A stretch of DNA of 64,000 nt from Minisyncoccota bacterium (GCA_041663165.1 JBAZRF010000001.1:736-64735), one strand, 5' to 3'. Shown: positions 1-64,000, counted from the stretch's first letter. Made by a program: numbers and translations. Notes: a model not told the origin generated them from the letters alone.

Positions 1-119
1 TTTTTGTTGTCGTTTTTCAACGTGAGCTTCGACAGTTTTTTGACTGGATTTTTGTCTCGACTAGGCGTCTAACTTCTCCGCGCGGCCAGGTTTTATCTAA
101 AGAGGTTTCCTTCTTAATT

Positions 120-644
120 ATGAAAGCGGTTCAAGAAATGGCTGATAAAAAAATTGGTGCCCTAATTGTTCTACCCGGTCAACTACCTCTTGATGGCGTA
201 ATTGAGGGCGGTTTCAGCTTAGATGGGCTAATTTCTGTACCGCTCCTCCTGTCGATTTTTGATGTCACCAGTCCGGGTCATGACGGCGCAGTGGTCGTTG
301 ATGATGATCGGGTTAAAATGTTTGGCGTTCATCTACCCTTGGCTGAAAATTATTCAGCTTCTCGGGTAACGGGGACTCGTCATCGGGCCGCCGTTGGGGT
401 TACCGAGAAGTCCGATGCTCTTGTCATCATTGTCTCTGAAGAACGGGGCGAAATTTCAGTCGCTGAGCATGGTCAATTAAAAAAAATTAAGGAAGCACAT
501 GTTTTAGAAGAACGGGTTAGCCACTTTCTTAGCGAAGCCCAAGAGCCCGAATTTAATCGTTTTTGGTGGGTTTTTTTGGTGCGCAATTGGCGGCTTAAGA
601 TTTTATCTATTGTTTTAGCCATTATTCTCTGGTTAATTATTTAA
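120..644 (+). CDS. Diadenylate cyclase (DAC/DisA_N domain) protein with C-terminal TM helix
   Basis: DAC motifs DGAVVV and GTRHRAAVGVTE are present, plus a C-terminal hydrophobic helix (ILSIVLAIILWLII). An in-frame stop at 99-101 means there is no N-terminal TM region in this frame. Confidence 0.6.
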   Translation: MKAVQEMADKKIGALIVLPGQLPLDGVIEGGFSLDGLISVPLLLSIFDVTSPGHDGAVVVDDDRVKMFGVHLPLAENYSASRVTGTRHRAAVGVTEKSDALVIIVSEERGEISVAEHGQLKKIKEAHVLEERVSHFLSEAQEPEFNRFWWVFLVRNWRLKILSIVLAIILWLII

Positions 645-656
645 GGAAGTATTTAT

Positions 657-2084
657 ATGTATACCAAAAAAACAAAAATCGTGGCAACGATCGGACCGGT
701 CTCGGAAGATGAAAAGACCTTGGAGCGCCTGATAAAACACGGTGTTAATGTTATTCGTCTCAATTTTTCCCACGGTTCTTTTGCTGAACATGGCTTAAGG
801 GTTAAAAAGGTCAGAGAAATTTCGTCTCGACTCGATATTCCCGTTGCTATCTTACAAGATCTTTGTGGCCCCAAGATCAGGATTGGCGATTTCAATGAAG
901 AACGAGTTACCTTGATTGCCGGTAAAGAATTTGTTTTAACGACGACCGAGGGAGTTGGCGACGAACATCGGGTTTGGGTTAATTATCATAATTTGCCTCA
1001 AGAGGTTAAGGCGGGGAATATCATTTTTCTTGATGACGGCAAAAAGAAATTAGTAGTTAAGAGGATCGAAGGTAACGATATTTATTGCGAGGTCATTATT
1101 GGTGGCGAAACTAAGGGGCGACGGGGCGTTAATGTCCCCGGCGCTTATTTATCGCTTAGCTCTTTAACCGACAAAGACAAAAAGGATCTAGAATTTGGCA
1201 TTGAGCAAGGGGTGGATTTTATGGCCCTATCCTTTGTTCGTCGGCCCGAGGACGTGCTTGAATTACGCGAAATATTAAAACAGAAAAAAGCCGGAGAGAT
1301 TAAGATAATTTCAAAAATCGAGACCGAAGAGGGGATCGACAATCTCGATGCCATTTTAGCCGTCTCTGACGGGGTGATGGTGGCTCGTGGCGATCTGGCG
1401 ATTGAGATTCCGGCTGAGCAAGTTCCTTTTGCGCAGAAAACGATCATCAAAAAATGTAATCGGCTAGGTTTACCGGTGATTACCGCCACCCAGATGCTTG
1501 AGTCAATGATCAAATCGCCAACTCCAACGCGGGCCGAGGTCAATGACGTAGCCAATGCCATTTTTGATGGCACGGACGCCGTGATGCTCTCCGAAGAAAC
1601 GACGCTGGGTGAGCATCCCGTCGAGGCGGTAGATGTTATGTCTCGAGTGGCGGTGCAAACTGAAAAGCATCTTGATCACGAAGATTTTTTGGCTAATATT
1701 TGCGCTGACGGCCATTGTCGGCGCAGTGTGGCCGACGCTTTTAGTGAGGCAGCTATCAATGTTGGCCATACAATCGACGCTAGCGCCATCGTGGTACTGA
1801 GCAATTCTGGCTTTACCGCGCGAATGATTTCACGCCTAAAACCTCATCGGCCGTTGATTGTTCTTACACCACAAGAAAAGACTTACAACCAGTTGGCCCT
1901 GTCTTATGCTTGCTATCCGTTGATGGAGAGAAATTTTTCTTCTCTCTCACAAGTTATTGAAGAGTCCAAAGCGATGTTGATTGATAAGAAATTAGTAAAG
2001 AAAAATGATCGAATTATTATTGTCGCCGGTTTGCCCTTGGGCCAGTCTGGGGCGACCAATACGGTTATTGCTGAGACGATCTAG
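657..2084 (+). CDS. pyk: Pyruvate kinase
   Basis: Full-length PK fold motifs (KIVATIGP, ...MVARGDLAIEIP...). RBS AAGGAAG lies upstream. Confidence 0.93.
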   Translation: MYTKKTKIVATIGPVSEDEKTLERLIKHGVNVIRLNFSHGSFAEHGLRVKKVREISSRLDIPVAILQDLCGPKIRIGDFNEERVTLIAGKEFVLTTTEGVGDEHRVWVNYHNLPQEVKAGNIIFLDDGKKKLVVKRIEGNDIYCEVIIGGETKGRRGVNVPGAYLSLSSLTDKDKKDLEFGIEQGVDFMALSFVRRPEDVLELREILKQKKAGEIKIISKIETEEGIDNLDAILAVSDGVMVARGDLAIEIPAEQVPFAQKTIIKKCNRLGLPVITATQMLESMIKSPTPTRAEVNDVANAIFDGTDAVMLSEETTLGEHPVEAVDVMSRVAVQTEKHLDHEDFLANICADGHCRRSVADAFSEAAINVGHTIDASAIVVLSNSGFTARMISRLKPHRPLIVLTPQEKTYNQLALSYACYPLMERNFSSLSQVIEESKAMLIDKKLVKKNDRIIIVAGLPLGQSGATNTVIAETI

Positions 2085-2177
2085 CTTTCCCTTAAACCAA
2101 TTGGCCGGCTGTTCGCGTATGCTATAATGCGAGCAGCAAAGCTCCCATTATTAATTTCGTTGTTAATATAAATTAAG

Positions 2178-3757: not shown

Positions 3758-4276
3758 TTATTTTTTAACTTCCGGTTTATATTCTTTTAACTCTTTTGTT
3801 TTTTCGATAAACAGAACGCCATTTAAGTGGTCGGTCTCGTGCTGAAAGATTTGGGCCAAGAGGCCGGTGCCAGAGCGAGTAAATTTTTTGCCATCAATAT
3901 CATAAGCAGTGACGGTGGCTTTGACTGAACGCCTCACTTCGCCATAAAGCCAGCGCACCGATAAGCAACCCTCCTCCATGGTCATTTTTTCTTTAGATAA
4001 TTTAGTTAATTCAGGATTAATAAAAACCAAATCCGGTTTTATTTTCTTTGCTTCAAAATCTTCCTCGTTTGTAAAAATTCGGCCCGAGACAACGAAAATT
4101 CGTAACGGCAGGCCGATTTGCGGCGCCGCTAGTGCCACCCCGTCGTCTTCTTTAGCCAGCGCTTCGCTCATATCGGTGATAATTTTTTTCAGTTTGGGCG
4201 TACCAAAAAGCTCCTTACCCACCTCCTCAGCGGGCTGATGAAGCACCTCATTTTCTTTTTGCACAATCTTGACCAT
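3758..4276 (-). CDS. def: Peptide deformylase
   Basis: Motifs EGCLS and QHETDHLNG. Classic def-fmt arrangement. Confidence 0.92.
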   Translation of the reverse strand: MVKIVQKENEVLHQPAEEVGKELFGTPKLKKIITDMSEALAKEDDGVALAAPQIGLPLRIFVVSGRIFTNEEDFEAKKIKPDLVFINPELTKLSKEKMTMEEGCLSVRWLYGEVRRSVKATVTAYDIDGKKFTRSGTGLLAQIFQHETDHLNGVLFIEKTKELKEYKPEVKK

Positions 4277-4831
4277 AGCTAATAACTATAATTTACAACA
4301 AAAAACTCAATAAGTCGAACCCAGTTCTGGACAAATGTTCTTTTGAGCCCATAATGGTAATAGAAAGAGTGCAGTTCAAACAGGATGAGGAGGCGCGCCA
4401 TGAAACTGTGCGTTATTGCCAGAGCATTACACCCTAATAAGGGTCGGAACCCCAGATCGGCCGTAGCCAACATAACCGCGGTCGAACTGGTTGCCGACAC
4501 CACACCCGTTTTTGGCCTACCGATGACTACTACGGTTGTCATCTACAACGGGGTGACATATCCACTGAAGGGGATTAGAGCCGATGGACTTAGTCCGGAG
4601 CAGGGGATCGTTTCTCTGTTGATCGGTTTGGAAAACGATTCCGAGGGTGTGGGGGAAAGGTGTATGGAATTGTTTACCGACCAGCCCTGGGGCAACGGCA
4701 CACCCTGTGCGGCTATCCGAGCCCTTGTTAAGACGCTGGTGGAAAAGAAGATGCGGCCACGGCGGTGGTGATTGAGTTGCCCGTCTCGCAACAACGAACC
4801 CGAATCGTTTGCGCGAGGCGGGTTCTGTTGC
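4277..4831. other. GC-rich (~57%) non-coding-looking block between priA and def; possible structured RNA or degraded foreign insert
   Basis: There is a sharp GC shift relative to the flanks. Only overlapping unconserved ORFs occur on both strands, with many GC-rich helices. I could not match it to RNase P, tmRNA, SRP RNA or group II domain V consensus by eye. Confidence 0.3.
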
Positions 4832-6748
4832 TTATAAAACACTCTCAGGGTCTACTCGGATGATAAAAGTTGGTGGTAATGATTTGAGAATGGACAATAG
4901 TTTTTTATCGGGCCAGGCAGAGGTCGAAAGTTTAACTAAAATATTTAGAACAGGGAAGCCCTTAATGCTTTTGGTTAATGAGGGATAGATAATTGGCTGC
5001 CACTCGGCTAGAGATTTTTCTAATTGGGTCATATCTTTTTTTATTTCTTCTTTTTTACCTTCGCGCGAAATTTTAATTAAGACTTTAAACGGCGGATAAC
5101 CGATCTGTCGGCGTTCTTCAATTTCGTCGCGGTAAAAATCAAGCAAATTGCCGGAGAGTACATACTGAAAGACCTTTTCGTCTGGATTGCGCGTCTGGAT
5201 AAAGAGGCGTTTGCTGGCTAAGAGTCGGAGGCGTAGCAATTCGCTAAATAGTTTTTCACCCAAGCGATAATCGGGTTTGGCAAATAAATGATCTAGGCCA
5301 ACCATGGCGATGTTCTCGATTTTTTCACCCAAATAGTTTAAGGCCATTTCTGTGCCGATGAGCACTGAGCCTGGCGATGAATAAAACTTGGCCATGATTT
5401 CTTTGGCTCTCGTCGGCGTTTTGGCGTTATCGCTATCAAGACGAAAAACATTAATGTTGGGCAAACTCTTTTTTATTTCCTGCTCAATTTTCTCAGCGCC
5501 TAAACCAAGTAGAGCCAAACGAACACCCCCGCAATTTGAACATTTGTCTTCTACTTCGACAACCTGTCCGCATTTGTGGCATAAAAATAAATGTTCATCG
5601 TTTACGGCCAGAGAATCCCTTTTATTTTTTTGATGAATAGTGAGTGCCGAGTGACAAATGTCACAAGCCATTACTAGTCCGCAATCATTACAAATGGTCA
5701 CCGGTGTTAGACCCCGCTGGCCGGCAAAAATAAAAAATTGTTCGTTATTGTCGCCAGCATTCTCGATTTGTGCCAGCAATCTTTCGCCAAGAGAATTCAA
5801 AATATCTAAATCATCCTTTTTGTCTTTTTTTATCAGGGGCCAGAGCTGCTGTTTAATGTCCGAATAAACTCGATATTTGATCGCTGTGGCTGGCGTAATC
5901 TCGCCTCGGCCGAGACGATAAATTGTTTCGCTACGCAGAGCAATGTCGCCAAAAATGAGGCGAATCTTTTTTTCTTCGGACAATTTCTCCGCGAAAAATC
6001 TCCAATCGACGTGTGGCCGGGAAAAATTTTTGTAGGTACTCGAATTTTCTTTTTCCAAAATTAAAGTGGTAATGTCGGCTCGGGGGAGGGATAAAAAGAG
6101 GGGAGTGGCAACGATCAAAACTGGATGAGTCGTGGTCAAAACCTTTTTCCATAAACTCAACAATTGATTTTTGGCCAGTCCGCCATGAAGGACTGTAACA
6201 TATTGTTCAATCCCTTTAGAAATTAAAGGGACTACTCGCTCGATGTCGGGGAGGGTTGGCAAGCAAAGGAAAATTGATTGTTTCTTGGCAAAACTCTCCC
6301 GAATGAGGCTTCGATAAAAAGACAGTCTCTCTTCGTCAGGTTCTTGGATCGCTAGAAATTCGGCCAGGATCTTTTCTCGGGGATCTTCCCAGTCTGGCAA
6401 TTTTACGTCCGGCAACCGGTCAAGAATTGTTTGCGGTATCAGAGATTTAATTACCTGACCGGGAAAAGTGGCATAATACTCGGCGGTTAAGTTGGCGGCC
6501 TTAATGAACTCCGGAGAAAAATACCCTTCCTTTTTTACCCGATTTATTTTTCGCCAGCCAAAGTCAGTTTTTTTAATTTGAATTTTGAGATCTTTGACTG
6601 ATTTTTCGGCAACGATTAAACCATCGATCATTTTATTTCTGATCGGTATCGAGACGAGCGATCCTAAGGGTATTTCTTTGGCGGTAAAATAAGAGAGAGA
6701 ATCCCGCCAAACGCCCTTGCTGATGGGAATAACACTAACGATTTTCAT
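4832..6748 (-). CDS. priA: Primosomal protein N' (PriA)-like, with degenerate helicase motifs
   Basis: PriA-type Cys4+Cys4 zinc-binding region (CNDCG...CDICH...CHKCG...CSNCGG) and PriA-like helicase core architecture. Walker A and DExH positions are not conserved (FLCLPT / EKENSS). Confidence 0.7.
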   Translation of the reverse strand: MKIVSVIPISKGVWRDSLSYFTAKEIPLGSLVSIPIRNKMIDGLIVAEKSVKDLKIQIKKTDFGWRKINRVKKEGYFSPEFIKAANLTAEYYATFPGQVIKSLIPQTILDRLPDVKLPDWEDPREKILAEFLAIQEPDEERLSFYRSLIRESFAKKQSIFLCLPTLPDIERVVPLISKGIEQYVTVLHGGLAKNQLLSLWKKVLTTTHPVLIVATPLFLSLPRADITTLILEKENSSTYKNFSRPHVDWRFFAEKLSEEKKIRLIFGDIALRSETIYRLGRGEITPATAIKYRVYSDIKQQLWPLIKKDKKDDLDILNSLGERLLAQIENAGDNNEQFFIFAGQRGLTPVTICNDCGLVMACDICHSALTIHQKNKRDSLAVNDEHLFLCHKCGQVVEVEDKCSNCGGVRLALLGLGAEKIEQEIKKSLPNINVFRLDSDNAKTPTRAKEIMAKFYSSPGSVLIGTEMALNYLGEKIENIAMVGLDHLFAKPDYRLGEKLFSELLRLRLLASKRLFIQTRNPDEKVFQYVLSGNLLDFYRDEIEERRQIGYPPFKVLIKISREGKKEEIKKDMTQLEKSLAEWQPIIYPSLTKSIKGFPVLNILVKLSTSAWPDKKLLSILKSLPPTFIIRVDPESVL

Positions 6749-12598: not shown

Positions 12599-12625
12599 AA
12601 AATTACTATATAATCCGGGGTATAT

Positions 12626-13177
12626 ATGGCATATAATTTTTCATCATTTAAGACAAAATTAGGAGAAGTCGAGGAGTGGCTTGGGCGGGAGTATTTGGGC
12701 ATTAGGACGGGTAAGGCGGCGCCAGCAGTATTGGATGGGGTGATGGTGGATGCCTATGGCTCGAAAACGCCGCTTAAACATGTGGCGGCCATCGGCATTG
12801 AGGACGCACGCACCGTGCGCGTTACTCCGTGGGACAAGGGGCAACTGTCAGCTATCCAAACAGCCATTGAGACGTCTAACCTGGGACTGTCGGTGGCGCC
12901 TGACTCGACCGGTTTGAGGGTCATCTTCCCGGCTCTGACTGAAGAGCGGCGCAAGATGCTAATTAAGTTAATGGGCGAAAAATTGGAGGATGCACGGATC
13001 TCGGTACGCAAGGAACGCGAAAAAGTTTGGGGCGAAATTCAAGCCGAAGAAAAAGCGGGAAAGTTGAGCGAAGACGAAAAATTTAAAGGAAAGGATGAAT
13101 TACAAAAACTGATTGATGAAGCCAACAAAAAACTTGAGGATTTGGCCAGTAAAAAGGAAACTGAAATAATGTCGTGA
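12626..13177 (+). CDS. frr: Ribosome recycling factor
   Basis: RRF signature throughout. 183 aa. Confidence 0.92.
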   Translation: MAYNFSSFKTKLGEVEEWLGREYLGIRTGKAAPAVLDGVMVDAYGSKTPLKHVAAIGIEDARTVRVTPWDKGQLSAIQTAIETSNLGLSVAPDSTGLRVIFPALTEERRKMLIKLMGEKLEDARISVRKEREKVWGEIQAEEKAGKLSEDEKFKGKDELQKLIDEANKKLEDLASKKETEIMS

Positions 13178-15570: not shown

Positions 15571-15571
15571 C

Positions 15572-37812: not shown

Positions 37813-37819
37813 AAATATT

Positions 37820-38849: not shown

Positions 38850-38852
38850 TGT

Positions 38853-39066: not shown

Positions 39067-39426
39067 ATGACTATGCCAACGGCGAGAGTGCGATATGTCA
39101 ATACAGGAATTGGTCACGATACGTTGACCAAATTGAGAGACCATCTTCGCCGGTTGATCGCTCAAATTCTGACCGAGGTGGAAACGGCTCGGCCTGTAAG
39201 CGAAGACGGGGTTCGTTTGTTCTTCAAGAAAAACGAACCCTTCGATGTAATGCCCGATGATATCTTCATTGTGGTTGAAATCGGGATTACAGAAAGGCGC
39301 CTTCAGGCCAAAGACGCCATCGCTCGAAAGATACACCGAGGACTCGTGGAGGTGCTGGACGAAGGGCTGAAGTTCGAAGTCCAGGTCCGTCCTGTCGAGC
39401 GTGGTCGAGCCAAGAGCGGGGGGTGA
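39067..39426 (+). CDS. Hypothetical protein, GC-rich foreign-looking gene
   Basis: Strong RBS GAAAGGAGATT before ATGACTATG. The longer ORF-track start (38995) lacks an RBS. No recognisable domain. Confidence 0.5.
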   Translation: MTMPTARVRYVNTGIGHDTLTKLRDHLRRLIAQILTEVETARPVSEDGVRLFFKKNEPFDVMPDDIFIVVEIGITERRLQAKDAIARKIHRGLVEVLDEGLKFEVQVRPVERGRAKSGG

Positions 39427-39504
39427 CGCGAGGGGTAAGACCCTCCTCCGAAGATTGAATCGGTTCACTGGCAACAGTGGGCCTTTTCTTTTATAATTGA
39501 ACTG

Positions 39505-40566: not shown

Positions 40567-40622
40567 AAACCAAAGCGTCCCGGCACTAAACGATGCGCGG
40601 GACGCGAGAACACATATGAGGG

Positions 40623-40907
40623 TTAAGGGTTGGCAATCGGGGCGAGGACCCTATCTTCAAGCTGCCGAATGATGGCGTCTGGGTCAGTTCCCATAAGCCC
40701 TTCCCGAAGAGAAGAGAGAAACTGGGCAGCTAGGCAACCCTTGGCGTGTTGGAGATATCCTCCCCAACGTCCAGGGATCTCGGCCTGCTGGTCAATCTCT
40801 ACTCCCATTACCACGGCAACTTTTCTAAGGTCGCCACTTGTCAGAGCGTTCTTAAGATCTCTTCTCCCCTCCGGACTTATTCGTCCGGCCACAATCTTTT
40901 CGTCCAT
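40623..40907 (-). CDS. Hypothetical protein, GC-rich foreign-looking gene
   Basis: Start set at MDEKIVAGR with RBS AAAGGAG. A consensus promoter lies upstream. No recognisable domain. Confidence 0.45.
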   Translation of the reverse strand: MDEKIVAGRISPEGRRDLKNALTSGDLRKVAVVMGVEIDQQAEIPGRWGGYLQHAKGCLAAQFLSSLREGLMGTDPDAIIRQLEDRVLAPIANP

Positions 40908-40929
40908 AAGGACTCCTTTCCCCGAGGAC

Positions 40930-40975
40930 CCCCTCGGAACACCTACTTGACATAATAGCATTTTAATTATAAAAA
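40930..40975 (-). promoter_or_regulatory. Near-consensus sigma70 promoter (TTGACT-17-TATTAT) for the 40623-40907 gene
   Basis: Reverse complement reads TTGACTttttataattaaaatgcTATTAT. Confidence 0.5.
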
Positions 40976-40995
40976 GTCAAGCATAAATTTGTTTT

Positions 40996-41020
40996 ATTAA
41001 AAAGCCGAAGCCGCGGGATT
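40996..41020 (-). terminator. Intrinsic terminator hairpin (AGCCGCGG-GATTGAA-CCGCGGCT) + U-tract on the minus strand, downstream of the 41054-41572 gene
   Basis: Perfect 8-bp stem. The minus-strand read continues CTTCGGCTTTTTAATAAAAC. Confidence 0.6.
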
Positions 41021-41053
41021 GAACCGCGGCTGGGGGTCAAACAAATTGTCGGA

Positions 41054-41572
41054 CTAGAAGAGGTATCCATCTGGTGGTTCTTCTCCGTCGGATCCGTCGT
41101 CGCGCCGGGGATCAGGTCGGGCGAGTTCTCCCTCGGGTGGCTGTCCCAATGGCCATTTCCCCGAACTTTCGCTGACCGAAGACCTGCTGTCTCCATCTTG
41201 CTCTCCGGACGATTCTTCTGACGGGAAACAGTCCGGTCGTCTCGGCGGAGCTTCGTCTACCGGAGCCCTTCCCGTGATCCGGTCAAAGACTCTGGCTTGG
41301 AGTTTGGCGATCAAGGATTTGAACCCTTTGTCGTCGAAGTCTCCCTGACGCACTGTTTCCTCGAGAATTGCTCCAATTGTGCCATCGATCTCACGATCTT
41401 TGGTTTGATCGAAACGATTTCCTCTCGTCTGGAGATAGGCAGAACCATATTGACTCAGGATCGTTGTTCTTAGTGCCTCGAGAGACATCGCTGGTCTCCC
41501 TGGATGGCCCTTGGCCATCCACACCTCCCAGGCCCTTCTTATTTCCCCAGTGTAAGGGTCGATCTTGGCCAT
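41054..41572 (-). CDS. Hypothetical protein with acidic, disordered C-terminal tail; GC-rich foreign-looking gene
   Basis: RBS AAGGAAGGA. The C-terminus is rich in D/E/S/P/G. No recognisable domain. Confidence 0.5.
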   Translation of the reverse strand: MAKIDPYTGEIRRAWEVWMAKGHPGRPAMSLEALRTTILSQYGSAYLQTRGNRFDQTKDREIDGTIGAILEETVRQGDFDDKGFKSLIAKLQARVFDRITGRAPVDEAPPRRPDCFPSEESSGEQDGDSRSSVSESSGKWPLGQPPEGELARPDPRRDDGSDGEEPPDGYLF

Positions 41573-41697
41573 TTGGCACCATCCTTCCTTTTCGCTCTGG
41601 CGAGCGCTCTGCGTTCAGTTCCACCCTTAACTTTAAATGAAAAAGAAAAAACGAGCAATCTTGCCATTAAACGGCTTTTGTGTATAATATAGTGGTT

Positions 41698-42798: not shown

Positions 42799-44157
42799 TT
42801 AAAAATTACCAAAATCACCCTTCTCGATATCCGAAAAGCTGGTGCGCGCGGCGTCAAAGTAGAGTTCAGCCTTACCGGTTGGACCGTTGCGGTGTTTTTC
42901 AATTAAAATTTCGGCGATATCTTTTTTTTCATTACTCTCCTCATCTTTTTCGCGGTGAATAAACATGACCACATCGGCGTCCTGTTCAATTGAACCGGAG
43001 TCGCGCAAGTCGGAGAGGCGCGGTTTGCCACCCCGCTGCTCAACGGCGCGGGAAAGCTGAGAGAGGGCGAGCACTGGTACGTCGATCTCACGGGCGAGCG
43101 CTTTGAGTGATCGAGAAATTTCGGTGACCATTTGCACTTGCGAATCAGTTTCTCGGCGAGGGACCATGAGTTGGAGGTAATCAACAATAATCAGGCCTAA
43201 ATTGTGTTCGGCTTTGAGTTTTCGCGCCTCCGACTTCATCCGCAAAATATTGTTTGACGGTTCATCATCAATAAAAATCGGCGCTTGGGCGAGCGAATCG
43301 AGCGCATCGCGCAAACGAGCAAAATCTTCGTCGGCGCGGATGGCACCGGTACGCAATTTCCATGAATCAACAAAACTTTCAGCGGCGAGCAGGCGGTCAG
43401 TTAATTGCTGGGTGCTCATTTCGAGTGAGAAGATACAGGTTGGGATTTTTTCGCGGCAAGCCACATGGCGGGCGATATCTAAGGCGAGCGAGGTTTTACC
43501 CATCGAGGGGCGAGCGGCTAAAATGATTAGGTCAGATTTTTGCAAACCGGCGAGCTTGGCATCAATGTCGCGAAAGCCGGTCGGCACGCCACGCATGGCG
43601 CCATCAGTCTTACTTAAATGATCAAAACGTTCCCAGGCTTCAGATAAGGCATCTTTAATATTGGTAACTTTTTTGTTGGCGTAGGAACCGAGGTTAAAAA
43701 TAATTTTTTGGGCGCGGTCTAAGACGTCAGTAACATCCTCATTTTCACGGTAGCCCAGCTCGGAGATTTGGTCGGCTGAACTAATTAATCCGCGCAAAGC
43801 TGCTTTTTTGTGCACTAATTCGGCGTAATGTTTGATGTTCGAAGCGGAGGGAACTTTGTTGGCCAATTCGGCGAGATAACTTGAACCACCAACGCTATCG
43901 AGCTGTCCCGCATCCTTCAGCTTTGATGAGACCGAAACAATGTCGACAGGCGAGCCAACTTCAGATAAGTCGATCATCGCGCTATAAATTTTTTGATGGC
44001 GCGTTGAATAAAAATCTTCAGGCCGAAGAAAATCGGCAATTTCACCGAGAACTTTTGGGCTAATCATAATCGACCCGAGCAAGGCTTGCTCGGCGTCCCC
44101 ATCATTTGGCGGAATTCTTAATTTTGTTCCGGCGAAGGGCTGTTTGTTTACGGCCAT
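42799..44157 (-). CDS. dnaB: Replicative DNA helicase DnaB
   Basis: Walker A GARPSMGKTSLAL and the DnaB C-terminal domain. No intein. Confidence 0.92.
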   Translation of the reverse strand: MAVNKQPFAGTKLRIPPNDGDAEQALLGSIMISPKVLGEIADFLRPEDFYSTRHQKIYSAMIDLSEVGSPVDIVSVSSKLKDAGQLDSVGGSSYLAELANKVPSASNIKHYAELVHKKAALRGLISSADQISELGYRENEDVTDVLDRAQKIIFNLGSYANKKVTNIKDALSEAWERFDHLSKTDGAMRGVPTGFRDIDAKLAGLQKSDLIILAARPSMGKTSLALDIARHVACREKIPTCIFSLEMSTQQLTDRLLAAESFVDSWKLRTGAIRADEDFARLRDALDSLAQAPIFIDDEPSNNILRMKSEARKLKAEHNLGLIIVDYLQLMVPRRETDSQVQMVTEISRSLKALAREIDVPVLALSQLSRAVEQRGGKPRLSDLRDSGSIEQDADVVMFIHREKDEESNEKKDIAEILIEKHRNGPTGKAELYFDAARTSFSDIEKGDFGNF

Positions 44158-44261
44158 GCTCCTATTCTATCACAAGCAAAAAGTTAAAAGAAAAGCATAA
44201 AAAATGAGAAATTCTCTTTAATTTGGGGACAAAATGTTATTAAAAGGGGGAGAAGAAAATA

Positions 44262-44292
44262 GTAAAGGGCCCTCCTCCCGGGGGCCCTTTGG
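44262..44292 (-). terminator. GC palindrome (GGGCCC...GGGCCC) flanked by A/T runs; likely terminator downstream of the antiporter gene
   Basis: aaagggccctcctcccgggggccctttgg. Confidence 0.4.
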
Positions 44293-44311
44293 TTGAAATG
44301 TTTGCGGCTAT

Positions 44312-46057
44312 TTAAGCCGCTCCTTTGCGATCTAACTCCTTTAAGCTGTCCCAGTGTTCTTTTCCGCGGTGTCGGAGTTCTTCTCCTGGTTTCAAGAGGA
44401 CATCGAGACTAACGTTCTGGGCATCGCTGCCTCGGTAACAACCGAGAGTCTCCGCCGCTAGCATGTGGGTCACAAGGACGAAATGGACCCCACGCTCGTA
44501 CAGGGCCAACGCGGTCCTGTTGGACGAAGTAATCGCTACGAAATTCGCGGTGGGGTTATCCCTGCTCAGGTGGGCAGCGAGAACCCCGTTGTCTTTGATG
44601 TCGGGCGCGGTTGAGATCATCGTCTCGACTTCGGAGAAATCGATACCCGCTCGAGACTCTTCACTGCAAGCGTCTCCGAATCGGCAGGGGACACGATCTT
44701 TCAACAATCTTGCGAAAATGTCTGGATCATGGTCAATCACGAGGTAATCAGTCTCTCTTCCTTTGAGCCCAAGCCCGATTGACTTACCGAGCCTGTCATA
44801 TCCCACTAGCACTATTTTGGGGTGCATGGTCTCGTCTGGCGCCAGTGGTTCCTGCTTCCATACTGTCAACTTGTCCAACCACCAAAGCTGTGAACGTAGC
44901 TTTTGGTAAAGGTCCAAATTGTACTTGATCAAGTATGACGATATCGTCATACTGACCACCGTCACCACAATGAAGGGTGGTAGGATCGTTGGATCCAGGT
45001 GCTTCAAGGCCACACCCTGGGCCACGAGCACGAGGCTAAACTCCGACAACTGGCCGAGGGCCAAACCGGAGTTAAAGGCCGAGGACCTTTCGTACCCGAA
45101 CAGGCCGACGATGATCATTACTAGGAGCGGCTTGATGACGATGACCGCAACAGACATCAGCACGATTAGGGTCAAATGGTTATAGATAATCAGGCCAAAT
45201 GATCCCAGCGAAGCACCACTGGTTGTCGGAGCGAGTTGGAGCCCTAGCGCCGCGAAGAACAAGACGGTGAAGAACGACTTCAACGCCTTGAAGTCCCCGA
45301 TGATCTCATGCTGGTACGCTAACGACGCCATCGCTAGGCCGGCTAGGAACGAGCCGATGCCCATCGACAGTTTCATCTTGGCCGCGTAAAAGGCGCAGAC
45401 GAACAGCACTCCCATAGCTACGACAAAAAGGGTTTCCCTTTCCCTCGCTACGCACCAGAACAGCCGTGGAAAAACGAACTTTCCGCAAACCATTACGATG
45501 AGTAAAATCAACCCGGCGGTAATCGTTCCTGTGCTTATCAACTCCGTCACTGAAAAATCATTGGCGGTAGTTAATATTGACAGGGCGAAAATCGCCATCA
45601 CGTCCTGCATTACTAGAATGCCTATGGAGATGCGTCCGTACAGGGTGTTAAGGTCGTATTTCTCGCCTAAGACCTTGACGACCAGCATCGTGGAGGAAAA
45701 GGATGTTGCGAAGCCGATGTAAGCACCCGCAATGCTAGTCATTCCCAGTAGCTTGGCCAGACCAAAACCTAAACCGAAGCTGGCGATGACTTGAAGACAT
45801 CCTCCGCCAATTGCGACAAGGCCGAGTTTCTTCAGGCGTGACAAGTCCATCTCGATTCCGATTACGAACAACATGATCGTAGCGGCGATTCCAGACATGT
45901 CACCGATCGACTCTACCTGGTTTATCCAGCCAAGGCAGAGAGGTCCTACTACTACTCCCGCCAAGACGTAGGCGGGGATCATGGGTTGCCGGGCTATTTT
46001 GAAAACTAGCCCAAACAATGCCGCTAACACGAACAAAATTCCTATATCCTGTTGCAT
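44312..46057 (-). CDS. Monovalent cation:proton antiporter-2 (CPA2/Kef-type) with C-terminal RCK/TrkA-N domain; GC-rich
   Basis: About 12 TM Na_H exchanger core. The segment KIVLVGYDRLGKSIGLGL is a Rossmann-type RCK fold. GC content is well above the flanks. Confidence 0.8.
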   Translation of the reverse strand: MQQDIGILFVLAALFGLVFKIARQPMIPAYVLAGVVVGPLCLGWINQVESIGDMSGIAATIMLFVIGIEMDLSRLKKLGLVAIGGGCLQVIASFGLGFGLAKLLGMTSIAGAYIGFATSFSSTMLVVKVLGEKYDLNTLYGRISIGILVMQDVMAIFALSILTTANDFSVTELISTGTITAGLILLIVMVCGKFVFPRLFWCVARERETLFVVAMGVLFVCAFYAAKMKLSMGIGSFLAGLAMASLAYQHEIIGDFKALKSFFTVLFFAALGLQLAPTTSGASLGSFGLIIYNHLTLIVLMSVAVIVIKPLLVMIIVGLFGYERSSAFNSGLALGQLSEFSLVLVAQGVALKHLDPTILPPFIVVTVVSMTISSYLIKYNLDLYQKLRSQLWWLDKLTVWKQEPLAPDETMHPKIVLVGYDRLGKSIGLGLKGRETDYLVIDHDPDIFARLLKDRVPCRFGDACSEESRAGIDFSEVETMISTAPDIKDNGVLAAHLSRDNPTANFVAITSSNRTALALYERGVHFVLVTHMLAAETLGCYRGSDAQNVSLDVLLKPGEELRHRGKEHWDSLKELDRKGAA

Positions 46058-46235
46058 GGTCCAAACCCTTCCGCCGATCTGGTTAAAACGCTAGAGTTAG
46101 TTAAATTGGTAGAGAACATCTCTCCATTTTCATTACTGGCACATTTTATTTATTATGTCAAGTATTAAAAACAGCAAAAAATCCCCAAAAAAGGATTAAA
46201 TTCAAGAAAGATCTTAAATTAATTTTAGCTCTAGT

Positions 46236-46688
46236 TTATTGCACTATTCTAGGCAGGGGTACGCCATCTCGGCCGTAATATAAGTAGTTACCCCTCCAGT
46301 TGTTATGACTAGATGAATAGAGAGCTGTTTGACACACTTCTCCTTCCTCGGGCATTTCCACTTGGCCGATAATTCGCTCAAAGAGGGTGATTGACTTGTT
46401 GTCATTATCTTCGGAATAAAAGGGTCCAGTTTTCGAACCAATATTACAATTAAAGATCTCTGTTCGCCAACAATTTTCCTCTAGTTTGTCAGGGCAATCT
46501 TTAGTTTGTTTGTAATTTTTTGACCAACAATCATTATCTTTTAAGGAGCAATTTCGAAAAACCATAATCCCTGTTGGGCTCAGTATCTCCATTCGGGGAG
46601 CATTAAAAACAGAATAAATTCCCCAAAGGACAAAGCCAATAACAACTAATAAGAAAATAAAAATCAGGTACTTTAATAGTTTTTTCAT
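46236..46688 (-). CDS. Hypothetical membrane-anchored Cys-rich protein
   Basis: N-terminal TM. About 8 Cys in the extracytoplasmic part. Confidence 0.45.
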   Translation of the reverse strand: MKKLLKYLIFIFLLVVIGFVLWGIYSVFNAPRMEILSPTGIMVFRNCSLKDNDCWSKNYKQTKDCPDKLEENCWRTEIFNCNIGSKTGPFYSEDNDNKSITLFERIIGQVEMPEEGEVCQTALYSSSHNNWRGNYLYYGRDGVPLPRIVQ

Positions 46689-47899
46689 AGAAGCTTAAGT
46701 CCCAAGACCTGATCAAATTTCGAGATAAGTTCCAGCTTTTGGGCGGAGGGGAGATCTTTAGCTGATAGAACCGCTTGTAGAACGGCGAGGGCGGAGGCGA
46801 TATTAAGGTTGGAGATTTTGGAGGTAAAGTCTGATAGATAACTTTCAGTTACCCGAAGTCCAACTTCGGGCGCATTTGAAACTGAAGTTTTGGTAGTTTT
46901 ATTTTTTAAGTTTTTATAGCCCTTGCTGGCCGCCTCAAGCGATTCCCAAGTGAAATTAACTTTTTGTTTGTAACTGGTTTGCAAAAGCAAGTAGCGGTAG
47001 GCGAGCGGGTCGTAATCTTTTTGCTCCAAGTCTTCTAGCGTGTAGAAATTGTTAGCGCTTTTGGCCATTTTTTTGCCGTCAACTAGCATATGTTCGGAAT
47101 GCAACCACTCGCGTACAAAAGTTTGGCCGGTCAGCGCCTCACTCTGGGCGATCTCATTAGTGTGATGGGGAAAAATTAAATCGACTCCACCGGTATGGAT
47201 ATCGGTGGTCTGACCATTAAAGGCGACATAATTGATAACGGAACATTCAATATGCCAGCCCGGCCGACCCTCGCCTAATTTTTCACTCGGCCAAAAAATA
47301 TTGGCATCGCTTTCGTCACGCGCCTTCCATAACGCGAAGTCGCTTAAATTATCTTTAGTGTATTCGTCAGCTTTAACGCGCGCGGAGGCTGATATTGAAC
47401 CACCGATTTTTTTGCCCTCCAAAAATTTCTCGCCGACCAACTCGCCATAATGGCCAAAGTCTTGCTGATATTTTTCGATGCTAAAATAGGTGCTGCCATC
47501 GTCGGCTTTATAAGCGTAACCTTTCTCAATTAATTTGACGATAAAGTCTTGAATTTGCGGCACTACCTCGCTGACTTTGATAAATTTTATCTCGTCAACC
47601 GAGACGTTTAACTTTTTTAAATCTTGCAAAAAGGCCTGGTAATATTTGTCAGTGTATTTTTTTAACTCTGCTACGTCGGCATCTTTCCCGAATTCTTCAA
47701 CGGTGTTTCTGATAGTTTTATCATCAATATCGGTAATATTCATTACCCACTTTGGGTTTTGACCAGCGAACTTTTTCGCGCGATAAACAAGATCAGCAAA
47801 AACATAACTGCGCAAATTGCCAATATGGGCAAAGTTATAAACTGTCGGCCCGCAGGTGTATAAGTTAAGATTTGAAGATTTTAGCGGTTCTAAATCCAT
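46685..47899 (-). CDS. cysS: Cysteinyl-tRNA synthetase
   Basis: HIGH region (CGPTVYNFAHIGN) and KMAKS (KMSKS) motif. Confidence 0.9.
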   Translation of the reverse strand: MDLEPLKSSNLNLYTCGPTVYNFAHIGNLRSYVFADLVYRAKKFAGQNPKWVMNITDIDDKTIRNTVEEFGKDADVAELKKYTDKYYQAFLQDLKKLNVSVDEIKFIKVSEVVPQIQDFIVKLIEKGYAYKADDGSTYFSIEKYQQDFGHYGELVGEKFLEGKKIGGSISASARVKADEYTKDNLSDFALWKARDESDANIFWPSEKLGEGRPGWHIECSVINYVAFNGQTTDIHTGGVDLIFPHHTNEIAQSEALTGQTFVREWLHSEHMLVDGKKMAKSANNFYTLEDLEQKDYDPLAYRYLLLQTSYKQKVNFTWESLEAASKGYKNLKNKTTKTSVSNAPEVGLRVTESYLSDFTSKISNLNIASALAVLQAVLSAKDLPSAQKLELISKFDQVLGLKLL

Positions 47900-50601: not shown

Positions 50602-50875
50602 CCGCCACTACCTCAACGGTTGATTTTGTTTTGACCAAACCAGCAAAACTCAATTTACGTTTGGAGCCAAATTTAACTACACCCGGGACACTGGCGAAAA
50701 TAGTGTGGTCCTTGCCGAGGCGAGTATTTTTGCCAGCCATGATTTTCGTCCCGCGCTGGCGCACAATAATACTGCCCGCTTTAGCCGTTTGACCATCAGC
50801 CAACTTTGTTCCTAGATATTTAGGATTAGAATCACGTAGGTTTTTAGCAGTACCCCCTGCCTTACGATGTGCCAT
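50594..50875 (-). CDS. rpmA: 50S ribosomal protein L27
   Basis: [16 protein letters not shown]...IIVRQRGTK. Its 3' end overlaps rplI convergently by 8 nt. Confidence 0.9.
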
Positions 50876-50895
50876 ATTGGTATAATATTAACGAC

Positions 50896-51084
50896 ATGAG
50901 TATAAAGGAAATGACAGAAAAAGTAAAGTTTTATTCGTCTTGGTGGCGAGCTCGCGAGAAGGAATTATTTGTTGCTCTACTGGTTGTTTTGGTTGCCCTG
51001 TTATCGTTCGGCCTTGGCCGTTTATCAAAAATTGAAGGTTGCCAACAGCCGGTTCAGATTGAGAATGCTTTACAGACGCAGTAA
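50896..51084 (+). CDS. Small hypothetical membrane protein
   Basis: A TATAAT element lies at about 50881-50889. One TM helix. The start is moved to MSIKEM. Confidence 0.35.
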   Translation: MSIKEMTEKVKFYSSWWRAREKELFVALLVVLVALLSFGLGRLSKIEGCQQPVQIENALQTQ

Positions 51085-51152
51085 CGCCCCGGATCATACC
51101 GATCGATCCGAGGCGCCGTTGATGGGGAAGGAATATACGGGCGTTGTCGTTG

Positions 51153-51665
51153 CTAGTCCCAAACCAGCTCGGAGTATTCGAGCATGATCTGGTCGAGGCG
51201 TTCGGCCGTGAACTTGCCGGCGTCAACCTCTTCCTGGGTGACAATACCACACTTGACCATGTCGTTGATGATGGCCAAGGTTACTGCTGGACAGTTCTTG
51301 CTACGAGCGGCGTTGGTCACTCGCGACCAGAGTGTCTTCCCGCGGAAGTTTAGGCGAGACCATTCCCACCAATCCGTGTCTCTGGGGTCGCCAGCTAGGT
51401 TGGAGGTCCAGACGAAGTGCCACTCCAGATACTCTGGGTTGAAGTAGAAAGTTCGTTCGCCTAGAACTAGTGGCCAGACAAGTAGTCCGCCGTCCCAGCA
51501 TGGGCCGGCTAACTGATCGCCCTCGGGCATTTCCCAGTACCAGGCGGGGACGTCCAACCCTCGGATCCAATAGCACCCCTCAAAGGGGTTTCCGTCGGCT
51601 TGAACGGTTTGACAAACTGCAACCGACAACAACACGAGAACAAAGAACGCATACGACGACTTCAT
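51153..51665 (-). CDS. Hypothetical secreted Trp-rich protein, GC-rich foreign-looking gene
   Basis: Signal peptide MKSSYAFFVLVLLSVAVCQTVQA. 13 Trp. No recognisable domain. Confidence 0.5.
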   Translation of the reverse strand: MKSSYAFFVLVLLSVAVCQTVQADGNPFEGCYWIRGLDVPAWYWEMPEGDQLAGPCWDGGLLVWPLVLGERTFYFNPEYLEWHFVWTSNLAGDPRDTDWWEWSRLNFRGKTLWSRVTNAARSKNCPAVTLAIINDMVKCGIVTQEEVDAGKFTAERLDQIMLEYSELVWD

Positions 51666-51782
51666 GGGCAAATCCTTTCGCGTGGCGCCCTTTATTGGGC
51701 TGTGGGCGCCGGTAGTTCATCCGTGAAAAATTATAGGACAAAAATAAGATAAAAGCAAGTAATAGAATTATTATGAAAAAGA

Positions 51783-52075
51783 CAATTGCTCCCGGCGGTT
51801 TACCCTAACCGGGAGCAATTAGCCAAATGAATCCGTTTGAGATCAGGCACGACAGAGGAAGTGCCTTTGCCTTACACACCGCGGCTTGAAGCCCTTGACA
51901 GATGCGACAATCGAGCTGCCCTTTTCCCCGATATTCGATCTTCCTTCCGGGGTGGGGGATTTGCTCGACGTACTCTTTGTTTCTGCTGGGGGACTCCCAA
52001 GTCTTCGGAAGTGCATAGTTCTTTCTCCTGATTCGGAGTGGCCACAACGGTCACTCATCCTTCCATAAAAATCTT
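51783..52075 (-). ncRNA. Candidate GC-rich non-coding transcript (promoter TTGACT-17-TTAAGAT at ~52075-52110; 12-bp perfect IR terminator at 51784-51820)
   Basis: Only overlapping unconserved ORFs occur on both strands. A promoter-like element and a hairpin plus U-rich tract are on the minus strand. Confidence 0.25.
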
Positions 52076-52134
52076 AACATCGCAGTTGCCATGAAGTCAA
52101 CACATTGTCAACGGGGGATATTTAAAAAGCTGGC

Positions 52135-52143
52135 TGTGGATAA
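52135..52143 (-). promoter_or_regulatory. Perfect DnaA-box consensus (TTATCCACA on the minus strand)
   Basis: The plus strand reads TGTGGATAA, immediately upstream of the iteron-like repeats. Confidence 0.4.
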
Positions 52144-52152
52144 CTACTATAT

Positions 52153-52274
52153 ATGTCGCACAACATAGATTTTGCGACATAGCGCTAGAGCTAATCTAGC
52201 GCTAATGTTGCAAAATCTAATCTTGGCGCGACGTGCTTCCCTATCATGTCGCGCAAGATATTTTGCGGCATAGC
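52153..52274. repeat. Iteron-like array: three copies (direct, inverted, direct) of a ~30-34-bp element with core TAGATTTTGCGACATAGCGCT, plus a 9-bp palindrome AGCGCTAGA/TCTAGCGCT
   Basis: R1 52153-52186, inverted copy 52198-52234, R2 52246-52274. Aligned by eye. Confidence 0.6.
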
Positions 52275-61942: not shown

Positions 61943-62480
61943 TATTGACCAAAACCTGTTCGGTCAGAAAATTAGCGACTTGTTTTTTTATTGTCTCAAA
62001 TTCGGGCAAATCCTCAACTTTTTCAATACCAAGGTGTCGTAATAGGTCGAGTGTTGGTCGATAAATAAAACGTCGAGCATCTTTTTTATCAATCTCACGT
62101 TCAATTAAACCACGAACGAGGAGATGGCGCAAAATAAAGCTGGAGTTAACTCCGCGCACATAATCAATCTCGGCCCGCGCCAGCGGTCCCTCATAGATAA
62201 TTAAGGTCAAAGTTTCAAGCGCCGCTTTGCCCAAATCGCGCGATAACTCCTCCTTGGTAATTTGTTCAATAATCGCTCCGGCCTCGCTCGCGGTGCCGAG
62301 CATTACTTCTTCACCCTGCCTAATTATTCTAACTCCCCTTTCAGCGAGGTTCCCTCCCAGCTGATTAAGGCTGGACTCAATTTCTTCAGTCGAAACGCTA
62401 AGCCATTTAACCAATTGGCTCACAGTTACCGCTTCGGCTTTGTAAAATAAAATAGCCTCTATTTTTGCTTCTAAACTCAT
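61908..62480 (-). CDS. scpB: Segregation and condensation protein B
   Basis: Tandem winged-helix ScpB sequence (EAILFYKAEAVTVSQL...; LETLTLIIYEGPLARAEID). Confidence 0.85.
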   Translation of the reverse strand: MSLEAKIEAILFYKAEAVTVSQLVKWLSVSTEEIESSLNQLGGNLAERGVRIIRQGEEVMLGTASEAGAIIEQITKEELSRDLGKAALETLTLIIYEGPLARAEIDYVRGVNSSFILRHLLVRGLIEREIDKKDARRFIYRPTLDLLRHLGIEKVEDLPEFETIKKQVANFLTEQVLVNIEQSNEDGTEN

Positions 62481-62535
62481 GATTATTTTTTTATATTATA
62501 CCCTACCCGACATTCTAAATACTAATCCCGAAATA

Positions 62536-63261
62536 CTAATATCTCGGTACACCAACCGATTTATTTTCCATCTCAATTTCGGCAAAGTGCGCTTTTTGTT
62601 CGATATTGATGGCGCCTTGTTTAACGAGCTCAAGCATGCCGAGAAAACTGACAATAATATTAACTTTATCTTTTTTGTCCTTAACAAAATCACCGAACGA
62701 CATTTTGAGAGCTCGGCTAACCCGTTCAGCCAAGTCGCTAATCACCTCCTCCAAACTAATCACTTTTTTAATGATTGTTTGCGGAATAATTTCTTTAGTC
62801 GGCAAATTATTGAGCAGTCGCTTAACGGCCTCGAATAGGCCGGGCAAAGTTATTTCGCGCGTTGGCGAAAAAACAATTACCGGCGCCGAACCCTCTTCCC
62901 GGCCAAAAATGATGTCCTTACCGAATCTTTCTTTAAGATGCCGGCTTAGGTCACGGACGCGTTGTAAACGCTTGAGTCGGTCTTCGAGGTCTGACACGCT
63001 TTCTTTTTCTTCTTCACTCAACTGTAATCCTGGGAGTAAGGCTAGGGACTTAATGAGCATGAGGGTCGAAGCGACCATAATAAAATTGGCCATCAGCTCC
63101 ATCGATTGATTCTCTTGGTTTTTCAGATAATTAACATAGCCATCTGCCACTTGCGCTAAAGACACCTGCGAGATGTGCATTTTGCGCTTCTCGATCAGGT
63201 TGAGTAGCAAATCCAAAGGACCCTCAAAATCCGCGATTTTAACCCTAAAATTCTCTTCCAT
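62536..63261 (-). CDS. scpA: Segregation and condensation protein A
   Basis: ScpA N-terminus (FEGPLDLLLNLIEKRKMHISQVSLAQVAD). Confidence 0.85.
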   Translation of the reverse strand: MEENFRVKIADFEGPLDLLLNLIEKRKMHISQVSLAQVADGYVNYLKNQENQSMELMANFIMVASTLMLIKSLALLPGLQLSEEEKESVSDLEDRLKRLQRVRDLSRHLKERFGKDIIFGREEGSAPVIVFSPTREITLPGLFEAVKRLLNNLPTKEIIPQTIIKKVISLEEVISDLAERVSRALKMSFGDFVKDKKDKVNIIVSFLGMLELVKQGAINIEQKAHFAEIEMENKSVGVPRY

Positions 63262-63301
63262 TAAGCCAATTTTACCTTTTTATGGTGAGCTTGTCGAACT
63301 A

Positions 63302-64000
63302 CTATTTGTCGGTCGATAACAGATTGTCTATACGATTCATGTCCCTCGGGAAAGAGGTGGCCTCCTTGATGTTTGCGAGTTCAAGCAGTCGGGCAGTGAA
63401 GCGCTCAAGGCCAGTTGAGGATCCGCCATGGGGAGGCATACCATATTTGAAGGTTTGTAGATAAAACTTAAATTTCTCTGGATCCATGCCTCGGCTCTTT
63501 ATTTTTTCTACCAACTCTTCGTAATTATGAATTCGCTGGCTACCACTATTGATTTCCAATCCACGAAAGATTAAGTCAAAACTGAGCGATAACTTCGGAT
63601 TGGTTGGATCGGCATAAGTGTAAAAAGCTCGCTTTGATGTTGGGAAATGGGTAATGAAGACAAAGTCTGATCCTTTTTCTCTTTTTGCCCACTCGCAAAT
63701 TTGTCGCTCATGTTCCGGTTCCATGTCCGGTTCACCAACCGCTTTTGTGCCGAATTCTTTTTCGAGAATTTCTTGCGCTTCAAGCAGGGTTAAGATTGGA
63801 AATTTTTCGGGGATCAAGGGCTTTTCGGTGTTAAATTCTTTAAAAACCTCGGCATGTCTATCGGCTACCGCATTAACCGAATCTTTGATCGCTTGTTCGA
63901 GCACGGCCATCGGATCCAAATGATTTTTGATGAAACCCATCTCAAAGTCCATCTGGGTGATTTCGCTGATATGTCTCGTCGTCGCTGATTTCTCGGCGCG
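63302..64000 (-). CDS. Aspartyl/asparaginyl-tRNA synthetase (class IIb), C-terminal part; 5' end lies beyond the window
   Basis: Motif 2 end (FEMGFI), FDLIFRGLEINSGSQR and motif 3 GMPPHGGSSTGLER. The ORF stays open to the window edge. Confidence 0.8.
   Translation of the reverse strand, partial: RAEKSATTRHISEITQMDFEMGFIKNHLDPMAVLEQAIKDSVNAVADRHAEVFKEFNTEKPLIPEKFPILTLLEAQEILEKEFGTKAVGEPDMEPEHERQICEWAKREKGSDFVFITHFPTSKRAFYTYADPTNPKLSLSFDLIFRGLEINSGSQRIHNYEELVEKIKSRGMDPEKFKFYLQTFKYGMPPHGGSSTGLERFTARLLELANIKEATSFPRDMNRIDNLLSTDK

Follow-up and report, generated by a model that had tools for sequence, protein, structure and literature searches.

GC-rich gene cassettes at fixed slots between core genes: a probable flexible genome in a Paceibacterota bacterium

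Results

Slots and cassettes of the window

The window analyzed here is a 64,000-nucleotide stretch of DNA from a Minisyncoccota bacterium (GCA_041663165.1, JBAZRF010000001.1:736-64735). Seven intervals of raised guanine plus cytosine (GC) content, which a sequence-only reading had picked out among its housekeeping genes, are numbered segments 1 to 7 (4277-4831, 27600-28620, 37134-37350, 38318-39430, 40623-41572, 44312-46057, and 51100-52080, respectively). Six of them carry genes. The mosaic probably represents the flexible genome of a bacterium of the Candidate Phyla Radiation (CPR), Vogelbacteria-like and belonging to Paceibacterota, with variable cassettes in fixed gaps (slots) between core genes. 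The slots and their open reading frames (ORFs), with protein lengths in amino acids (aa), are the following.

4277-4831, plus strand: segment 1 slot, between def (3758-4276, minus) and priA (4832-6748, minus), with an antisense ORFan
27578-28706, minus strand: segment 2 slot, between murF (26270-27577, plus) and tRNA-Glu(CTC) (28707-28779, plus)
37134-37353, plus strand: segment 3, the 3' untranslated region of an Ig-like surface protein gene (35829-37133)
38255-39504, no single strand: segment 4 cassette, divergent ORFs 38318-38734 (minus, 138 aa) and 39067-39426 (plus, 119 aa)
40567-41660, minus strand: segment 5 cassette, two genes between rmuC (39505-40566, plus) and the rplU promoter (41661-41688)
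44158-46688, minus strand: segment 6 slot, between dnaB (42799-44157) and cysS (46685-47899), with the Kef gene 44312-46057 and ORF 46236-46688
51085-52134, minus strand: segment 7 slot, between a conserved small ORF (50869-51084, plus) by rpmA and a dif-like element

Sequence comparison assigns the window to the genome of an uncultured member of this group, and the relatives of its DnaB (77-92% identity) lie in metagenome-assembled genomes of Paceibacterota/Vogelbacteria. Four further relatives were found by a PriA search in Joint Genome Institute (JGI) metagenomes, and the closest relative, L067 (RmuC 97% and MurF 87% identity), was reached through homolog look-up. Core synteny is kept in L002-L010, L039, and L063-L067 for the blocks def-priA, murF-tRNA-Glu-VTT, rmuC-rplU-recR-dnaB, cysS-corA, and rplI-rpmA. 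Each of the six gene-bearing segments lies in or beside a gap of variable content among these relatives, where the gap is empty, differently filled, or occupied by an ortholog whose divergence far exceeds that of the flanking genes; the variability of segment 4 was judged only as part of an approximately 8-kb stretch missing from L003 and L067. The gene-bearing segments are thus accessory or turnover DNA, not housekeeping genes.

The occupants look like small self-contained cassettes of one or two genes with predicted expression signals. A Shine-Dalgarno sequence precedes every segment ORF, and segments 4, 5, and 7 add sigma-70-type promoters and intrinsic terminators, so that the ORFs resemble expressed host genes (predicted). 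The cassettes encode a CPA2/Kef antiporter, two proteins with signal peptides (of which one has predicted SH3b-like repeats), and several lineage-restricted ORFans. This agrees with the earlier description of the cargo, since the Kef antiporter, signal-peptide proteins, hypothetical proteins, and some non-coding pieces are all present. The same reading had placed the segments in the strand context of their neighbors, which does not fit, as the ORFs of segments 1, 2, 4, and 5 are antisense to theirs. The only RNA gene in the window is tRNA-Glu(CTC) (28707-28779, plus); Rfam searches at the gathering threshold and at E ≤ 1 matched no other RNA family, and known RNA genes are therefore ruled out as the cause of the GC-rich patches.

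The window comes from a metagenome-assembled genome, and an assembly or binning artifact, with reads of a GC-richer organism spliced into the contig, was therefore weighed; we regard it as scarcely credible. The murF/27669 junction was found again in a Logan assembly. Both junctions of the complete segment 5 cassette were seen again in two further places, a separate JGI sample (3300014208) and a Logan assembly, and its 172-aa gene was found alone on an ENA contig. Orthologs stand in the same slots of independently assembled relatives for segments 2, 6, and 7, and core genes lie within about 100 bp on both sides of each segment. The junction sets of segments 2 and 5 are thus reproduced in independent assemblies and are not chimeras, and this recurrence, together with the same-slot orthologs, makes chimeras very unlikely.

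Base composition of the segments

The GC content of the whole window is 44.7%, that of the seven segments pooled is 52.5%, and that of the remainder is 43.8%. Segments 1 to 7 have GC contents of 51.5%, 54.7%, 55.3%, 50.1%, 53.1%, 52.2%, and 52.8%, respectively, and their edges match gene or intergenic boundaries. The compositional heterogeneity described by the sequence-only reading is therefore real, and the profile is not uniform (52.5% pooled vs. 43.8% outside), but its amplitude had been overstated. The inserts, put at 55-60% GC, measure 50-55%, and only their 300-nt peaks reach 0.56-0.60; the backbone, put at about 42%, measures about 44%. At least eight inserts had been claimed, whereas seven intervals were listed and segment 3 is no insert. 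Similar 300-nt GC peaks occur in the backbone, in frr (12603-13094, 0.59), pyk, dnaB, and the Ig-like surface gene.

GC content at third codon positions (GC3) was most extreme in three genes, namely 27669-28553 (0.70, z = 9.0), the Kef gene 44312-46057 (0.64, z = 9.5), and 51153-51671 (0.69, z = 5.8), where z is the excess after correction for amino-acid composition. Amino-acid composition was rejected as the source of these values, as the expected GC3 was 0.46-0.49 and the observed 0.64-0.70. The three genes share a third-position pattern that is poor in T (T3) and rich in C and G (C3/G3). ORF 4385-4771 showed a GC3 of 0.62 (z = 3.4). The ORFs of segments 4 and 5 were mildly raised in GC3 (z of 0.8-2.1), and their GC was up at all codon positions.

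The composition-normalized dinucleotide signature of the pooled segments gave δ* = 140, compared with 28 ± 10 in size-matched backbone samples. Segments 2, 4, 6, and 7 are closer to each other (δ* of 57-89) than to the backbone (120-182). The segments thus have the atypical base composition that is one criterion of a genomic island.

Two core genes, frr (12603-13094) and the 3' half of dnaB (42802-43640), are also reproducibly GC-richer than their surroundings, and the dnaB excess is present in every relative, including the 36% GC genome L009. This reproducibility indicates that gene-specific GC offsets exist in vertically inherited core genes as well.

The murF-tRNA-Glu slot

The 294-aa product of gene 27669-28553 in segment 2 has a signal peptide and predicted tandem beta repeats of SH3b-like type. 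Its family (27669-28553; P0083-P0092) comprises small secreted proteins with two to three tandem G-x-R-V-Y-I-P...F-F-Y-x-D-L repeats and a predicted SH3b-like fold. The family had no earlier name, and its members are candidate cell-wall or host-surface binders in CPR bacteria. One similar repeat motif lies at the N-terminus of the 51153-51671 product, with a weak match to 27669 (E of 0.02-0.08).

The slot is empty in L003 and holds an unrelated GC-rich ORF in L002. L067 has an ortholog of only 39-43% identity, against 87% for MurF. Searches of 5.8 and 1.8 billion proteins returned the orthologs of relatives as the only homologs of 27669-28553.

The 3' end of tRNA-Glu (28754-28773) has a 16/20 copy at 28796-28815, 42 nt downstream from start to start and before the VTT-domain gene. 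This copy may be the scar of a former tRNA-targeted integration. It lies on the 3' side of the tRNA, and the GC-rich gene on the 5' side.

The dnaB-cysS slot and the Kef antiporter

The product of gene 44312-46057 has the architecture of CPA2/Kef antiporters, with a membrane domain Na_H_Exchanger (PF00999, E = 8.6e-51) followed by a C-terminal TrkA_N (RCK) domain (PF02254, E = 2e-13). It differs from the characterized types in scoring far under the equivalog cut-offs of KefB, KefC, and YbaL. Its nearest named relatives (43-73% identity) are all Patescibacteria, and the next tier reaches at most 36%. By these matches the gene belongs to a Patescibacteria-specific CPA2 branch, and its product is a predicted antiporter.

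The gap between cysS and dnaB is only about 100 bp in L003 and L005, holds Kef and the small ORF in L006, and holds other genes in L002, L039, and L007. ORF 46236-46688 is a small membrane ORF that overlaps the cysS stop by 4 nt, and it was found only alongside Kef (in the window and in L006).

Elsewhere Kef often stands beside other GC-rich accessory genes (L055, L058, and L059). At L059 8724-17154 the homolog is part of a GC3-rich block of about 9 kb, which also holds genes of purine biosynthesis (SAICAR synthase, FGAM synthase, and AIR synthase-like). These purine genes exceed the locus median GC3 by 0.19 to 0.29, and the block looks like a larger GC-rich island.

The rmuC-rplU slot

The rmuC-rplU spacer is just 35-76 bp in L002, L003, L005, and L009. 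In the window it is filled by segment 5, which is laid out as ORF 41054-41572 (172 aa), a terminator (41031-41009), a promoter (40980-40952), and ORF 40623-40907 (94 aa). L067 carries two unrelated GC-rich ORFs here (GC3 of 0.59 and 0.71, respectively), despite flanks that are 88-97% identical. No homolog of ORF 41054-41572 was found in the searches of 5.8 and 1.8 billion proteins or in viral-contig searches. Contigs with an identical rplU carried the same segment 5 cassette and no alternative one.

Segments 1, 3, and 4

The ORF of segment 1 (4400-4771, 123 aa; given as 4385-4771 in the ORF list) has GAGGAGG as its ribosome-binding site, and its hairpin terminator is shared. In L064 the slot between priA and def is empty, at 70 bp; in L063, L065, and L066 it contains different DNA (0.9-2.3 kb), most of it GC-rich.

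Segment 3 was rejected as an insert, because it is the 3' hairpin/terminator region of the Ig-like gene, with no Rfam match. Its RNA (217 nt, 55.3% GC) folds with −92.8 kcal/mol (z = −4.3) into a long GC-rich hairpin and a terminator-like hairpin.

Segment 4 has back-to-back promoter-like sites at 38806-38778 (minus) and 38822-38850 (plus), and a terminator at 39462-39483. The plus-strand site (TTGACG-17-TATGGT) is followed by a leader of about 200 nt and then ORF 39067-39426. Within this leader (38822-39066) a GC-rich hairpin and a T-run lie at about 38910-38950; the layout is attenuator- or riboswitch-like, with no Rfam match. ORFs 4400-4771, 38318-38734, 39067-39426, 40623-40907, and 41054-41572 had no match in Pfam, NCBIfam, PHROGs, or PADLOC.

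Segment 4 belongs to the variable region of about 8 kb (~31380-39504) that is missing from L003 and L067, where a glycosyltransferase gene abuts rmuC. Besides segment 4, the region carries a response regulator, a histidine kinase, the Ig-like/peptidoglycan-binding surface protein, a tRNA-editing-domain protein, and a HIT-like protein. It is mostly of normal GC and was absent from the earlier list of segments.

Segment 7 and the dif-like element

Segment 7 consists of the secreted-protein gene 51153-51671 (signal peptide), which has a promoter of its own and a terminator hairpin upstream (51784-51820), and of GC-rich DNA at 51672-52080 whose coding status is ambiguous; the fold of 51672-52100 is ordinary (z = −1.4). 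Syntenic orthologs of 51153-51671 (25-44% identity), all GC-elevated, are present in L039, L006, L007, L008, and L009, and the gene is absent from L002 and L003. A single-sequence structure prediction of its product gave a predicted local distance difference test score (pLDDT) of 43.6, too low for use.

The adjoining ORF 50869-51084 (plus, 71 aa) has a C-terminal transmembrane segment, lies beside rpmA in all close relatives, and is part of the backbone. It mostly overlaps the 5' part of the neighborhood that had been assigned to segment 7.

On the other side lies a non-coding element (52135-52180) that is invariant in eight relatives. It is composed, in order, of TGTGGATAACT with a perfect DnaA-box 9-mer inside, 7-8 variable nt, and a 28-nt site (52153-52180). 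This site, ATGTCGCACAA-CATAGA-TTTTGCGACAT, has an 11-6-11 arrangement with arms inverted at 10 of 11 positions, which is the architecture of a dif-like Xer site. Cumulative GC skew reaches its maximum at the element, and gene orientation switches close by; for these reasons the element probably marks the replication terminus. A replication origin at 52135-52180 was rejected, as only isolated DnaA boxes and no cluster were present. A degenerate 11-4-11 dif-like copy (52243-52268) lies about 90 nt away on the same side and is common to L006, L007, and L010 only. Five of the seven segments lie less than 15 kb from the dif-like element.

Search for a dedicated insertion mechanism

As one explanation for the fine mosaic, the sequence-only reading had offered a specific insertion mechanism. 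Such a mechanism could be a tRNA-targeting integrase, elements that exploit the Xer/dif system, transposons, or miniature inverted-repeat transposable elements (MITEs), and we judge it very unlikely. The hints in its favor are local. Segment 2 abuts tRNA-Glu with its 3'-end copy downstream, segment 7 ends 73 bp short of the conserved dif-like site, and a 9-nt inverted match, GTTAAGGGT, flanks segment 5.

No integrase, transposase, or recombinase domain was found in or beside any segment, and no phage, defense, or mobile-element signature among the small ORFs (Pfam, NCBIfam, PHROGs, and PADLOC). A flanking search of the six segments detected no direct or inverted repeats that bound them. All-against-all comparison of DNA and protein showed no similarity between segments other than the weak N-terminal motif of 27669 and 51153. 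A classical integrase-mediated island was excluded for lack of an integrase and of attachment (att) repeats, and the tRNA-like repeat is on the wrong side, since the insert lies 5' of the tRNA and the repeat 3' of it. An integrative mobile element exploiting Xer (IMEX) was likewise rejected for segment 7, as there is one dif-like site and no bounding pair; no second 11-(5 to 7)-11 site with at least 16/22 arm matches occurs anywhere in the window. Transposon and MITE families were discarded because there are no terminal inverted repeats and no related copies among the segments. As a terminal inverted repeat, GTTAAGGGT is at chance level (20 matches vs. 13 expected with one mismatch).

GC3 excess across genomes

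The GC excess belongs to the gene families and not to the window genome. Gene GC3 exceeded that of the backbone by 0.07-0.33 in all 16 cases (Kef in eight genomes, the 51153 family in six, and the 27669 family in two). Gene GC3 was correlated with host GC3 (r = 0.75 overall and r = 0.83 for Kef), and the logit offset was roughly constant at 0.8-1.0. Kef exceeded the GC3 of its neighbors in 8 of 8 contigs, in varied contexts and with host backbone GC3 from 0.22 to 0.55. The pattern points to a compositionally distinct, phylum-internal accessory pool or to a persistent GC-raising force.

A survey covered 795 ORFs at 43 related loci, and none of the widely shared ones deviated by more than 0.15 in GC3. 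The idea that accessory genes of this clade are always GC-rich was rejected, as rare ORFs deviate in both directions and AT-rich occupants exist (46236-46688 in the window and 9287-9811 in L002).

Recent, unameliorated acquisition of single genes from a high-GC donor outside the phylum, such as the bacterial host of a presumed episymbiont, is in our view unlikely. The raised GC at all codon positions, the distinct dinucleotide signature, and the presence or absence of the segments relative to sister genomes would fit it, as would segment 5, which is specific to the window lineage among the sampled genomes. The high-GC donor of the sequence-only reading nevertheless finds no counterpart in the searches. 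The named relatives of Kef are Patescibacteria, with no homolog beyond them closer than 36%, and the other ORFs have no homologs beyond close relatives, as seen for 41054-41572 and 27669-28553. The cassettes use host-type promoters and ribosome-binding sites (predicted). Simple recent acquisition is also at odds with the three GC3-rich families, which follow host GC3 in all their cases and two of which are diverged same-slot orthologs in relatives. According to amelioration theory, silent sites should have equilibrated to the host at 25-44% protein identity. The GC3 excess in all 16 cases and its tracking of host GC3 argue against a straightforward recent import from a single high-GC donor.

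Discussion

Origin of the mosaic

The evidence from slots, junctions, and composition is consistent with the flexible-genome reading, for which the following mechanism is proposed. Following uptake of DNA, homologous recombination in the conserved genes on either side would let cassettes be gained, lost, and swapped, without a dedicated integrase. The cassettes would be drawn from an accessory pool confined to Patescibacteria. This pool would have a composition of its own (GC3-rich, T3-poor, and with distinct dinucleotides), so that its members would stand out against a core of 44% GC. As to why the pool would be GC-rich, we favor, as a sub-hypothesis, GC-biased repair or gene conversion at loci with unusually frequent recombination.

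Several observations weigh against this account. We infer the role of flanking homology in exchange from the slot pattern, and no donor copy of any cassette was found. The dinucleotide signature of segment 5 differs from that of the other segments. In the Kef slot, a single insertion combines GC-rich Kef with an AT-rich ORF (46236-46688, 37.5% GC), so that its two genes depart from the backbone composition in opposite senses. Among the rare ORFs of the survey, 9.9% deviate to high and 7.0% to low GC3, so a GC-rich pool is not universal. Identities in the 51153 family rank as those of core genes do (L039 > L006/L007 > L008/L009), which looks like vertical inheritance with fast divergence and long residence. 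The near-constant GC3 offset of Kef, which tracks host GC3, fits a mobile pool no better, and perhaps less well, than a force that acts in place.

The last two points lead to an alternative that differs from the flexible-genome account only in the cause of the GC content. The genes would be long-term residents whose GC is maintained in place and by family, through GC-biased gene conversion or selection on synonymous sites. We hold this to be a real possibility with somewhat less than an even chance. The steady logit offset over all 16 cases, tracking host GC3, speaks for it, as do the syntenic 51153 orthologs. In L055 and L057, Kef stands in the same neighborhood with a similar offset in unlike hosts (backbone GC3 of 0.22 and 0.37, respectively). 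A link between the GC content of genes and recombination in bacteria has also been published (PMC4450053). On the other hand, the genomes behind the 16 cases are related and the cases are not independent. The rise in GC3 of the 60 core-gene codons beside the slots is small and not significant (0.47 vs. 0.43 in the rest of those genes, n = 12). The position of Kef beside GC-rich accessory genes in L055, L058, and L059 resembles GC-rich islands. The GC-rich genes in the rmuC-rplU slot of L067 are unrelated to those of the window, with near-identical flanks, and must have arrived already GC-rich.

Comparison with known systems

In Patescibacteria, hundreds of islands and individually transferred genes have been described, making up to 13% of genome length, with single-gene exchange mostly within the phylum (PMC12455944, mSystems 2025). 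The flexible-genome reading agrees with these findings and would make the mosaic ordinary for the group. Compared with the islands in the part of that study considered here, the window shares the phylum, the Patescibacteria affiliation of the named Kef relatives, and one- or two-gene units. Its units differ in being gene-sized (0.5-2.5 kb) and in lying in fixed inter-core gaps that are shared across genomes. They are also GC-richer than the core, with three families keeping their excess in every host examined, a pattern that this part of the study does not contain.

Replacement-type flexible genomic islands, as known from pangenomes of marine bacteria, carry different or diverged cassettes at the same locus, typically with surface-related products, which are exchanged through conserved flanks. 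The window resembles them in the fixed position, in unrelated or diverged content within near-identical backgrounds (window vs. L067), and in some secreted or membrane products. In contrast, its units are much smaller and only some of the products are demonstrably exported. Classical tRNA-linked integrase islands share with the segments the atypical composition and, for one segment, the adjoining tRNA gene. The segments differ from them in having no integrase or att repeats, in the insert lying 5' of the tRNA, and in being much smaller than the customary >10 kb.

Bacterial GC-biased gene conversion (PMC4450053) predicts a higher GC3 in recombination-prone genes than in the rest of the genome. 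The predicted GC3 excess that rides on the host background is seen in Kef and in the 51153 family. The published case concerns core genes with signals of intragenic recombination, whereas here the process is a candidate cause only.

Biological meaning

Only tentatively, and as a suggestion that we think less likely than not, the pattern may be stated in general terms. Paceibacterota would have hypervariable accessory genes at fixed slots, several of them exported or membrane-bound, with a persistent, family-specific GC3 excess of about +0.2 (logit ~0.8-1.0). This excess would ride on the host background and survive divergence to 25-45% protein identity. It would not be a mark of foreign origin but the footprint of GC-biased gene conversion, or of another force favoring GC, concentrated at hot spots of recombination in the ultra-small, AT-leaning genomes of CPR bacteria.

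In a metagenome-assembled CPR genome, screens based on composition would mark such patches as contamination or foreign DNA, whereas here they are genuine cassettes. Their cargo, with fast-diverging secreted SH3b-like proteins, a lineage-specific K+/H+ antiporter, and ORFans (functions predicted), makes the slots a site of strain-level differences, possibly in host interaction. If the offset does reflect GC-biased conversion, the slots would serve as a natural, gene-sized readout of recombination in unculturable organisms.

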